Positions 1,581 to 41,040 of a stretch of 64,000 bases of DNA are shown one piece after another (position 1 is the stretch's first letter; each line of letters starts with the position of its first letter). The notes under the pieces are model-generated. The model had not been told where the DNA came from and made no database searches. It worked only from the letters and a program-made list of their open reading frames with translations. This stretch comes from Candidatus Bathyarchaeota archaeon (GTDB lineage Archaea > Thermoproteota > Bathyarchaeia > Bathyarchaeales > Bathycorpusculaceae), in assembly GCA_963806535.1 (NCBI GenBank), contig CAWDYC010000009.1, positions 121,190-185,189 on the forward strand. Reading direction: 5' to 3'. The position numbers and the translations under genes were made by a program.

Positions 1581-1657
1581 GCCGTCGTGGCTCAGCCCGG
1601 TAGAGCGGCTGGCTGTTAACCAGTCGGTCAAAGGTCCGAATCCTTTCGACGGCGCCA
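1581..1657 (+). tRNA. tRNA-Asn (GTT)
   Basis: GCCGTCG/CGACGGC acceptor stem, anticodon arm GCTGG-CTGTTAA-CCAGT, T arm AAAGG-TCCGAAT-CCTTT, encoded CCA end. Confidence 0.95.
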
Positions 1658-38979: not shown

Positions 38980-39228
38980 TTTGTAAGGCTCAGCGAGTTT
39001 TAAGGTACATGTAGAGAATCTTTGTTAATTAAATTTTATCCCAATCTGCCCTAACGACATCAAATAATATTACGCATGAGACTTTATTTGGAAAAAAAAG
39101 CTACTATAAATCCTACTCGAAAACTTTCACAGTACTTGGTAAAGCATTACTTTGATCTGCTATGTTCCAATTGAGATTAGAATAGATATTTTGGTTAGTT
39201 GAAATGAACAGCTACTAATTCATAATCA

Positions 39229-39508
39229 TTATATTGGTTCAAGAGTTACTTCTAAAACAAATCCTTCGAGACTTGGCTCATTACGCTTCAGTAGCGACAT
39301 CGTCAGCTTTGGAATAATTAAACGTCCATCTTTATGCATCGTTGCCAGAAAACTCTCTCTGACTCCTAAGACGCCTACTATGGTTATAGTGACTTTAAAA
39401 ACCTCAGCTGGCTCTAACTTGTATTTCCACTGAATCAGCTTGGGCACTTGTAGGCGATCTCGTTTCTGCAGTATTGTTTTTATAAATAACATTTTGATTT
39501 AACGGCAA
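39229..39508 (-). CDS. Tandem AbrB/SpoVT swapped-hairpin (MraZ-like) DNA-binding protein
   Basis: Two AbrB-like repeats (LQKRDRLQVPKLIQW; MHKDGRLIIPKLTM). The ORF is intact from ATG 39492. A TTG at 39508 plus a 1-nt indel in the T5 run at 39477-39481 would give MPLNQNVIYKTILQ. Confidence 0.65.
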
Positions 39509-40020
39509 AACCTTAATAGACCTTTCTAGACCGTGTTGGACTTTTTTAGACCTTTCCGAACCTTTCCAGACCGCAACCTGCAAAGAATTCAAGCTCTAAA
39601 TCTGAAAACCAACTTAAACCACAAAGAAAAACTCCACACAAAAATCCCGCTACAACTTTCTTTCTCAGAAAAGTTCAAGACCACTGAACGCAAATAAACG
39701 CGATACAACGGGGATAAACGCAGATCAACGCAGAACAACGGGAAACAACGCAGTTCAACGGGAAAAAACGCAACCTGCAGAAGATTTAAGCTTTGCTTCA
39801 AAAAACCAACTTGAAACACAAAGAACAAATTTGCGTAAAAAAAATGCAGTAGAGTTGGCTAAGCTTCACTTCTTGAAAGTTTACGACAACTTATTTTTGC
39901 CTTTCTCTTGGGGTTTTTGCAGATTCTTGCATTTTCTTGCATTTAAAGACACAACCTGCAACCGAAACAAACCCGAAAACAAAAAAGCAATCTAAAACAC
40001 AAAGAACAAATCTGCACAAA
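39508..40020. repeat. Three tandem modules, each a 10-bp-period array plus a conserved ~70 bp block
   Basis: Arrays: AGACC-like x7 (39508-39572), AACG x9 (39687-39770), TTGC x4 (39897-39940). CAACCTGCA at 39574/39771/39952 is each followed exactly 46 bp later by CACAAAGAA. Confidence 0.9.
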
Positions 40021-40163
40021 ATCACCCAAAAAAAAATTCCTCACTCATTTCTATTAGCCATCTGTGCTGAGCTTTCTTTAGAAATATATGAAAACTAAGA
40101 ATTCTTCCAAGAAAAAAAAGAACTTAAACTTATCGAAATAGCTAACATAAAACACTAGACTAA

Positions 40164-40460
40164 TTAGAGCTTCATTATTTGTGCGTGAGGTACGCCTTCG
40201 ATTTTTATTACTGCATCCGGATGCACATAACCCTCATCTATTGCTTTTTCAACACAAGTTTTCCCCACAAGATTAACTATCGTTGAATTGTCAATCATAC
40301 CCATAGCTTCGTCAACTGTTGCTTTTCGTCCATTGTAAAACTCGTCTTTAATGCGAAAGACAATTTTGCCTTCCCGAAGTGTTTTGCCGAGAAGTTCACA
40401 GTCGCAAACTGCTAATAACACGTTTGCCCCGACTTGTTTGAGATTAACGTAAACTTCCAT
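40164..40460 (-). CDS. DUF424 family protein
   Basis: LLAVCDCELLGK, FYNG, NLVG and GVPHAQ motifs. Usual neighbour of aIF-2beta. Confidence 0.85.
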   Translation of the reverse strand: MEVYVNLKQVGANVLLAVCDCELLGKTLREGKIVFRIKDEFYNGRKATVDEAMGMIDNSTIVNLVGKTCVEKAIDEGYVHPDAVIKIEGVPHAQIMKL

Positions 40461-40470
40461 TTTAGCTCAC

Positions 40471-40881
40471 TCACAATTGTTTAATTGATGATTTGGCGCC
40501 GCAAGCATTACACACCAAGAAAGAGAGGCGTTTTTCCTTAACTATTCTGGTATCAGGACGTTTGCAAACTGGGCAAATCACATAGCTTTCTAGATACCTC
40601 TGAAGTAATCGTTCAAAACTGTCGCCCCGAAATTTTCCTTGAAAAATTGCTCTTGAATCCTGGAAAGTTGCAGCCGTAGCCATTTCTCTGGTCAGAAACT
40701 TCAAGATGTGTTGAGGATCTCTATCTAAGGCATCAGAAACTTCTTTGAAATTTGAAATTATTGTTCGCATACCAACTGTATTGATATACAATCTTGGTAA
40801 TTCTAAGCGCTCACGCTTGGTTGAAACTTCAGGCATCTGAGCACATGCTTTTTTTAGGAGTTCGTCATAATTGAAGGACAT
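40471..40881 (-). CDS. eif2b: Translation initiation factor aIF-2 beta
   Basis: YDELLKKA, TIISNF and the CPVCKRPDT..CNACGA zinc ribbon. Start at ATG 40881. Confidence 0.95.
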   Translation of the reverse strand: MSFNYDELLKKACAQMPEVSTKRERLELPRLYINTVGMRTIISNFKEVSDALDRDPQHILKFLTREMATAATFQDSRAIFQGKFRGDSFERLLQRYLESYVICPVCKRPDTRIVKEKRLSFLVCNACGAKSSIKQL

Positions 40882-41040
40882 ATCTCGTATCTCATCAATG
40901 GATTGTGTTAGGATATATTTAAAAATTATAATCAAAACACTCATATTGAACGTGGAAAATATCATAATTTCCACAGACAACTAATATAAATTCGGAAATA
41001 GCAATCATCATAAGCTTGAACTAACATATGGGGCTATCTC

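Follow-up and report, generated by a model that had tools for sequence, protein, structure and literature searches.

Intergenic elements that join phased box arrays to a constant block, and their association with genes for AbrB-like TabA proteins, in a genus of Bathyarchaeia

Why does an archaeal intergenic region carry three copies of one conserved DNA block, each abutting an array of short boxes with a strict 10-bp period, and each array built on a different core motif? This question is raised by positions 39508-40022 of a 64,000-nucleotide stretch (the window, i.e., the whole stretch of DNA that was analysed) from a Candidatus Bathyarchaeota archaeon genome (assembly GCA_963806535.1, contig CAWDYC010000009.1, positions 121,190 to 185,189 of the forward strand). 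An earlier note, made from the letters of the window alone, had proposed that these three modules form a modular address system in which paralogous AbrB/MraZ-like proteins each read a cognate array. We followed up this proposal computationally in the window, in the genome from which it was taken (hereafter, the own genome; 2.95 Mb, 12 contigs, 92% complete), and in related genomes. The modules were found to belong to a large family of dispersed elements that is linked to genes for a small protein, for which we here coin the name TabA; this name covers the unannotated family of an 87-aa gene product encoded beside module 1, the typical length in the family being ~92 aa.

The three modules lie head to tail on the + strand, and each consists of an array with a 10-bp period that is immediately followed by a constant block (block 1, 39572..39644; block 2, 39769..39841; block 3, 39950..40022; all on the + strand and delimited by self-comparison, pattern, and profile). 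The pattern CAACCTGCA-N37-CACAAAGAA occurs at 39574, 39771, and 39952 (+) with 0 mismatches, as compared to a mean of 0.00 occurrences in 100 dinucleotide shuffles, and the 73-nt blocks align without gaps at spacings of 197 and 181 bp, with identities to block 1 of 74% and 71% for blocks 2 and 3, respectively; the three ungapped units of the earlier note and their spacings are thus borne out. Tandem Repeats Finder (TRF) reported a period of 10 at 39517-39572, 39697-39772, and 39924-39944. Array 1 (39509..39573, +), which lies between the gene start and block 1, was previously counted as seven AGACC-like boxes; six of these are clear and the seventh is only weak, and the same core is found beside the orthologues L030 and L161. 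Array 2 (39687..39770, +), an orphan (i.e., an array with no TabA gene beside it), holds nine perfect copies of AACG, one per 10 bp from 39687 to 39767, with 6-nt spacers that are all unlike, in agreement with the earlier count; AACG-type arrays also occur beside the TabA genes L160, L117, L152, and L070. Array 3 (39893..39949, +), another orphan, has TTGC at 39897, 39917, 39927, and 39937, and the slot at 39907 that had been noted as degenerate is filled by a slipped TTGG; it belongs to a TTCC/TTAC/TTGC class that is common in the own genome. The motif AAAGTT(C/T)A(A/C)GAC(C/A)ACT, which had been reported to precede arrays 2 and 3, is indeed common to 39670-39685 and 39877-39892, the first of these being the pre-array linker motif AAAGTTCAAGACCACT (39670..39685, +).

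The arrays were also correctly described as neither CRISPR (clustered regularly interspaced short palindromic repeats) nor coding. CRISPR was ruled out by the repeat period of 10 bp, by the distance of 181-197 bp between blocks with arrays between them, and by the lack of Cas context, while a coding repeat was rejected because 10 bp is not a codon multiple and there is no open reading frame (ORF). An origin of replication was dropped as a candidate since no Orc context was found.

The block is not confined to the window. A search of the own genome with the strict block pattern, allowing at most two mismatches, returned 74 matches (and 0 with the reversed pattern), and an nhmmer profile of block plus tail returned 107 copies, a count that is slightly inflated because of pairs of elements that probably represent assembly redundancy or strain variants; 95 of the 107 copies lie outside ORFs of at least 90 aa. 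The copies fall into 74 clusters, of which 51 hold one copy, 14 two, 8 three, and 1 four; the 133-kb contig C10 alone carries 23 of the 107 copies, ~5x the genome average. At least four in-phase boxes are present in 70 of 106 elements, the usual array having 4-11 boxes with a 3-5-bp core, and the mean lag-10 identity of arrays is 0.50 as compared to 0.26 in random genome stretches (99th percentile, 0.40); the tie between the block and phased arrays with different cores therefore extends well beyond the three modules. The core classes identified were GTGAC (11), CTTAC (9), TTGAC (8), CTTCC (6), GAGAC (4), AGTC (a few), GTAC, GACC, CACAC, AACG, and others. Nearly all copies follow an array in a common register: the block comes directly after the triplet ACG in 63 of the 107 copies and after ACT in 19, so that the phase of the array is fixed relative to the block. 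Judged from sequence, the elements are a lineage-specific bipartite DNA family, found in a Bathyarchaeia genus of peat and soil, in which the array is fused to the block and both its register and its orientation are fixed; several related metagenome-assembled genomes (MAGs) have isolate names that point to peat, palsa, or bog.

Two pairs of elements (C2:37558/C5:118 and C12:5170/C9:10595) have identical or near-identical flanks on different contigs, some at contig ends, and probably reflect assembly redundancy or strain variants in the MAG. In the genomes G013 and G009, contig ends fall on blocks; the repeats thus disrupt the short-read assemblies of these MAGs.

How closely is the element tied to TabA? 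In the own genome, tblastn and a hidden Markov model (HMM) of the 87-aa protein identified 6 intact TabA paralogues and ~5 decayed ones, and all matches with E <= ~1e-4 adjoin an element, with the gene divergent from the block, ~70-110 bp off, and the array between them. An opposite-strand block was found upstream of the TabA gene at 50 of 55 loci from other MAGs (L044, L072, L079, L082, and L084 being the exceptions), and a block-like match was found by a loose rule at 59 of 60 further loci from ten-odd congeners, 52 of these with at most two mismatches, so that the predicted association of the block with paralogous genes for tandem-AbrB-like proteins held in both sets. Across 101 genomes of the genus, the block model matched 65 and the TabA profile matched 62; assuming that both draws took the same 101 genomes, 59 contain both, 6 the block only, 3 TabA only, and 33 neither, and the copy numbers (block counts being capped at 51) correlate at a Spearman rho of 0.69, which shows co-distribution but no proof of a functional tie because kin genomes are not independent. 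With 107 copies in the own genome and matches in 65 of 101 congeners, the block recurs both genome-wide and across the genus. Genomes with few copies have approximately one block per TabA gene, whereas the own genome and ~17 others have at least 51 blocks as compared to 4-13 TabA genes; up to 13 TabA profile matches were found per genome, some of them broken genes. Outside the genus, TabA is sparse: of 301 genomes of the class, 21 have it, and these represent 11 of 107 genera. At distant homologues from other families and orders, 3-4 phased boxes are retained together with a ATTTAAGC..GAAAAGCAAGC core. In the array upstream of one TabA gene (L119, G056:C6:214470-215095), a run of ~14 copies of the 6-nt motif GGGAAC stands beside 10-bp AACG-type boxes, and the distance between gene and block is 196 nt.

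The 87-aa protein of the window matched 0 Pfam families, five paralogues from the own genome gave no match to AbrB or MraZ models at E up to 10, and a match to PF04014 (AbrB/SpoVT) is absent in TabA, the Pfam field being empty among the 120 relatives listed. A search of 5.8 billion proteins yielded 583 TabA-related clusters, which are mostly annotated as "hypothetical", a few Joint Genome Institute (JGI) records being named PrlF-type antitoxin or MraZ. An AlphaFold2 (AF2) model of TabA, built from a 43-sequence alignment, reached a predicted local distance difference test (pLDDT) score of 91, and its top Foldseek match in the PDB was PhS018 (2glw; template modelling [TM] scores 0.80 / 0.76, E 7.5e-5, root-mean-square deviation 2.2 A over 85 columns). 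MraZ chains (9r4j, 9qlg, 9sz7, and 1n0e) were weak Foldseek matches (E 0.04-0.16, TMq 0.46-0.52), and a profile of the five paralogues searched against PDB sequences found 2glw_A at a weak E of 0.14. TabA thus appears, from the predicted model, to be a single-chain swapped-hairpin barrel (AbrB-like, PhS018-type), and the earlier suggestion of a tandem-AbrB-like gene is supported by the fold.

If arrays and proteins are paired, do they vary together? When the 4-mer core of the linked array is mapped on a tree of 75 TabA proteins, 33 changes are required, whereas 300 label shuffles gave a mean of 53.1 and never fewer than 49; with regard to the covariation that the earlier note had asked about, the core thus follows the clade. 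CACAC, GTAC, AGTC(G), AACG, and TTGAC each mark a TabA clade, and the window protein clusters with L030 and L161, all of which have AGACC boxes. Paralogues within one genome mostly differ in core (e.g., 7 cores among 8 examined in G056 and 6 among 6 in G044), and core switches do occur, because the sister proteins L053 and L068 have unlike cores (TTGACG vs ATGTC). A GR motif in the second half of the protein is invariant (75/75) and may be equivalent to the base-contacting arginine motif of AbrB-type proteins. The first-half residue that aligns with this arginine is R in 40, K in 22, L in 4, and T in 4 of the 75 proteins, N and Q also being seen; L occurs solely with CACAC-type boxes and T solely with AAC(G)-type boxes, which is a hint at a recognition code, confounded by descent.

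These data also bear on the idea that the arrays are tracts for sequence-directed curvature or for positioning of archaeal histones, in which phased T-tracts would act without base-specific reading. Many arrays do have a T4-6 tract per 10-bp unit (e.g., CTTTTTnGAC), but the AACG, CACAC, and GAGACGG classes have none, the best-kept positions are those of the core rather than of the tract, and the core classes follow TabA clades; we thus regard this explanation as very improbable.

What would a linked array, block, and gene do? The reading that we favour, and to which we give an even chance of being correct, is that the modules derive from the control region of tabA and represent MraZ-like operators with paralogue-specific boxes and a shared platform block. 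The home of the element would be the divergent upstream region of a ~92-aa TabA gene. Structures of MraZ published in 2026 are described as having one subunit per GTG(G/T) box, 6-nt spacers, and four boxes, with the transcription start site inside box 1 (PMC12957436), and because the geometry of the arrays equals that of MraZ, we take them as putative operators that would be read one box per subunit; TabA would bind along one face of the DNA and control its own promoter. Paralogues would then have diverged in box specificity, making each array an address for one paralogue, while the block would be the common partner of all arrays, its probable BRE-TATA-BRE-like core (BRE, transcription factor B recognition element) serving as a promoter or control platform for the bound array; this last step is the weakest. 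Orphans have dispersed and been rearranged, with breaks at the array/block junction, and could be trans targets or decoys of the paralogues. A bolder version, which we consider doubtful though possible, is a genome-wide modular addressing network with up to about a dozen orthogonal single-chain AbrB-like readers per genome, each recognising its own 3-5-bp box in a phased array, a portable block at >100 intergenic sites, and live orphans that act as promoter switches, insulators, or decoys; if it is true, regulatory inputs could be rewired by swapping cassettes.

A number of observations weigh against the operator reading. TabA could not be assigned by sequence searches to any AbrB or MraZ family; the earlier proposal of paralogous AbrB/MraZ-like proteins with cognate arrays fits the comparative evidence (i.e., linkage, clade-core correlation, and fold), but not the MraZ family as defined by sequence. 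The correlation between clade and core is expected from shared descent alone. Blocks of the own genome score poorly against a BRE/TATA position weight matrix (PWM) built from 39 tRNA upstream regions of that genome (at least 7 bits in 4/77 forward and 2/77 reverse), and some TabA subfamilies have a TATA-like stretch (CTTAAG/TTTAGA) between array and gene, so that the tabA promoter need not lie in the block. A TabA gene or pseudogene is found within 450 nt of only 12 of the 107 elements, leaving ~89% as orphans in the own genome; no intact cognate gene was found in this genome, which is 92% complete, for the array classes GTGAC (11), GAGAC (4), and AGTC (a few), and the gene beside a GTGACG array has 3 stop codons. 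Finally, the 74 clusters are oriented randomly to flanking genes (38 same and 35 opposite on the array side, 39 and 34 on the tail side), and because of this random orientation the orphans are unlike dedicated promoters of their neighbours. No functional theme was apparent by eye among 24 downstream genes, which encode TetR-like, ABC ATPase, DNA ligase, malic enzyme, and other proteins.

Comparison of modules between relatives, as the earlier note had proposed, further revealed considerable turnover. The gap between a pectate-lyase-like gene and the DUF424 gene (window 38980-40163) is a variable hot spot: the 1.18-kb segment of the window is absent at the same site in G013 (where aIF2-beta is 93% identical), G056, and G045, which have ~200 bp instead, while G021 has ~960 bp with two other elements and G044 has 856 bp with an unrelated ORF whose translation looks acetyltransferase-like. 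Five species share a conserved core promoter upstream of the DNA ligase gene, and the two elements that lie just beyond it are present solely in the own genome. A two-element composite recurs at 6-8 loci with 82-97% identity; modules 2-3 of the window (C9:160988-161210) match a composite on contig C4 with 81% identity over 235 bp, including the linker ..gcagtagag..ctaagcttcacttcttgaaagtttacg.. (39842..39892, +) that joins two elements at several loci, and the first array differs between the two. At another locus of the own genome (C4:359273-359723; L088:4274-4724), an AGTC-type array and block lie 135 nt upstream of the signal recognition particle (SRP) RNA gene (RF01857, 145 bits). Block and SRP RNA gene are co-aligned with ~90% identity in at least four other species, which have a TabA gene and a TTGAC array there, as compared to an AGTC-type array and no gene in the own genome. 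The homology to four other species begins at the first bases of the block while the arrays differ, and an exchange of arrays at the block boundary is thus visible; both this locus and the C4 composite display the cassette-like exchange of arrays on a constant block that had been postulated.

Could the element then be a selfish or passively spreading repeat, similar to miniature inverted-repeat transposable elements (MITEs) or repetitive extragenic palindromic (REP) sequences, that arose from the tabA upstream region? Under this explanation orphans would be readerless, only gene-linked copies would be operators, and arrays would grow and change by replication slippage and recombination between blocks. 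The variable presence between close species (window segment and ligase elements), the neighbour-independent orientation, the recurrent composites, the array classes lacking an intact cognate gene, and the excess of blocks over TabA genes in copy-rich but not in few-copy genomes are all in line with it. On the other hand, boxes and phase persist despite divergence of the spacers, and orphans are no less conserved than linked arrays: box and spacer identities are 0.79 vs 0.52 in 38 orphans and 0.81 vs 0.54 in 8 gene-linked arrays, a measure with some circularity, given that the boxes were used to select the arrays. Perfect AACG boxes amid diverged spacers similarly argue against recent slippage alone, block anchors are conserved across copies whose inner positions differ, and the block upstream of the SRP RNA gene has been kept in the other species. 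No terminal inverted repeats were found at element ends in window 39300-40200 (inverted pairs there being <=27 nt with 72-74% identity), and no transposase is linked to the elements. Target duplications could not be defined, since divergence between the flanks of filled and empty sites obscures the element ends. Overall, we judge the selfish-repeat explanation to be unlikely, though by no means negligible.

A separate question is the role of the block itself. It is C/A-rich and ~55-90 bp long, with most blocks at least 70-90% A+C, and 69 copies from many genomes align without gaps, 24 columns having at least 90% identity (CAACCTGCA, AAAAAGCAAC, and AAAACA). Gene-linked copies in relatives often have a symmetric GCAAAC-GATTTAAGC-TTTGC, which scores as BRE/TATA in both directions; among 39 gene-linked blocks, forward position 6 reaches at least 5 bits in 14 and reverse position 14 reaches at least ~7 bits in 13. 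Read towards tabA, the symmetric core would set the transcription start near the array/block junction, by analogy with MraZ. A promoter-bearing platform is therefore put forward as the most likely role of the block, but tentatively and at somewhat less than an even chance. Use of the block as a 5' untranslated region or promoter of the downstream gene was ruled out by the random orientation and by the downstream genes' own conserved promoters (ligase and SRP RNA).

The same composition could instead indicate that block and tail constitute an RNA gene that is small, unstructured, and C/A-rich, or else a 5' leader common to the elements, transcribed away from a regulatory array. The strand asymmetry is strong, many gene-linked copies have a BRE/TATA-like GCAAAC-GATTTAAG in the forward direction, a conserved tail motif GTCAATAAC follows the block in 31/107 copies, and a pyrimidine-rich GTTGYTCTTCT lies 40-50 nt downstream of the block in a subset. 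Yet neither block nor arrays gave an Rfam gathering-threshold match in the window, RNAalifold on 11 sequences of block plus downstream region yielded no consensus fold (0 pairs and 0 covarying pairs), the PWM scores in the own genome are weak as given above, and the tail is not conserved across species, which together make an RNA or leader improbable. A pairing of AAAAAGCAAC with the downstream GTTGYTCTTCT is suggestive by eye and unsupported by the consensus fold; hairpins inside the block (GAAG..CTTC and GAAAT..ATTTC), seen by eye in a subset only, were dropped. As a side observation, the tail motif CCGTCAATAAC (31/107; e.g., L007:1570-1586) is the reverse complement of the TTGAC(G)-type box GTTATTGACGG, i.e., a single inverted box ~85 nt from the array.

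In basal relatives with few copies, tabA is found with 2-3 CAGAC boxes and a diverged block, directly downstream of the C-terminus of a Pox_D5-like primase-helicase (PF03288, E 3.7e-5) and in plasmid- or provirus-like surroundings with PIN, HicA, and ribbon-helix-helix (RHH) genes. At L089 (G012:C1:6500-12500), a 1539-bp unit with tabA, an RHH-like gene, and a PIN gene is repeated three times in tandem, with further PIN, RHH, and winged-helix genes adjoining, and has the appearance of a portion of an integrated mobile element. Iteron regions typically have phased direct repeats next to a strand-asymmetric stretch, and these surroundings would suit a module of iteron type (origin, copy control, or partition) from an integrated plasmid or provirus, TabA acting as an iteron-binding adaptor and the chromosomal copies being relics. 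Speaking against this origin are the dispersal of ~100 copies among housekeeping genes, the absence of a Par or Rep partner gene beside the window modules, and the failure of a query with the C-terminal fragment to find a D5-like primase homologue in the own genome; we therefore consider it more improbable still than an RNA gene or leader.

The gene beside module 1 (39229..39492, -), a TabA-family gene for a predicted single-chain swapped-hairpin (AbrB-like) protein according to ORF, AF2 model, and Foldseek match, begins at ATG and encodes 87 aa. A stretch of family-type N-terminal codons (39493..39508, -; identified by comparison with L030) carries, at 39508, the start TTG-CCG-TTA that is typical of the family; this start is shifted by one base relative to the frame of the ATG ORF because an A-run in the window gene has one A more than in L030, the closest homologue; a 62-aa ORF (39404-39592, -) encodes LPLNQNVIYK, the N-terminus of L030. 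The module 1 gene is thus either N-terminally altered or decaying, and the earlier statement that only module 1 retains a gene stands insofar as a TabA gene adjoins this module, with the qualification that its family-type start is out of frame. Neighbouring genes in the window encode the pectate-lyase-like protein, DUF424, and aIF2-beta. The aIF2-beta ORF (40471-40980, -) has 169 aa here and in G013, matches of most congeners begin at residue 30-34, and its long N-terminal extension may be artificial, resulting from an ORF call that began at a TTG. A tRNA gene at 1581-1654 (+) is the sole Rfam gathering-threshold match in the window.

If the operator reading is true, TabA would give the PhS018-type single-chain AbrB barrel its first functional lead and would be an archaeal counterpart of box reading by MraZ, and the dozens of natural protein-box pairs would make a recognition code readable and offer compact orthogonal DNA binders. 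The elements are an unusual case in that they represent either regulatory DNA acting as a mobile cassette or a mobile repeat carrying ready-made operator arrays, and they bear on the rewiring of regulatory networks in uncultured archaea.

A literature search, at abstract level, found no paper describing such an element, and the closest known systems each share only part of its features. In ParR-parC systems and plasmid iterons, direct repeats in helical phase are cooperatively bound, overlap with a promoter, and lie beside the gene for the binding protein; the elements likewise have phased direct repeats beside the gene of a (here predicted) binding protein, but their repeat is 10 bp as compared to 11 or 17-22 bp, they are chromosomal and multi-copy, and no partition ATPase or Rep gene is present at the window modules. 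MITEs and REP/BIME-type repeats (BIME, bacterial interspersed mosaic element) resemble them in copy number (~100), intergenic location, patchy presence between close species, neutral orientation, and tandem clustering; by contrast, the elements carry a variable array of phased boxes and appear to derive from, and stay linked to, a predicted transcription-factor gene family. The AbrB/SpoVT/MazE regulators and antitoxins, including the AbrB-like regulators of archaeal plasmid-viruses, share the swapped-hairpin fold with TabA and are small proteins that regulate their own gene by binding upstream of it; they differ in being homodimers of one half-domain with usually palindromic or loosely defined sites, while TabA has no PF04014 match and no toxin partner in the window. 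PhS018 of Pyrococcus horikoshii (2GLW) is in the same length class as TabA, is a single-chain barrel, and is the best structural match, with only 21% identity; it has been described as an uncharacterised archaeal barrel related to the AbrB swapped hairpin, with predicted AbrB-type DNA binding (PMC4333400). MraZ has an AbrB-type cradle of two half-domains per chain (TabA has two halves by model) and, as published, a 4-nt core and 6-nt spacer in a 10-bp period between the promoter and its own gene, which is autoregulated (PMC12957436), as compared to 3-5-nt cores every 10 bp upstream of the gene at TabA loci. TabA, at ~92 aa, is a single barrel without the helical oligomerisation interface described for MraZ (PMC12957436), has no match to the Pfam MraZ family (PF02381, UPF0040) and only a weak fold match to it (TM ~0.5), and is archaeal, with no dcw (rsmH/fts) genes near the window locus. 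Moreover, TabA arrays reach at least 11 boxes as compared to 3-4 for MraZ, and TabA is set apart by its paralogues with different cores, by the constant block attached to each array, and by the ~100 orphan copies of the element.

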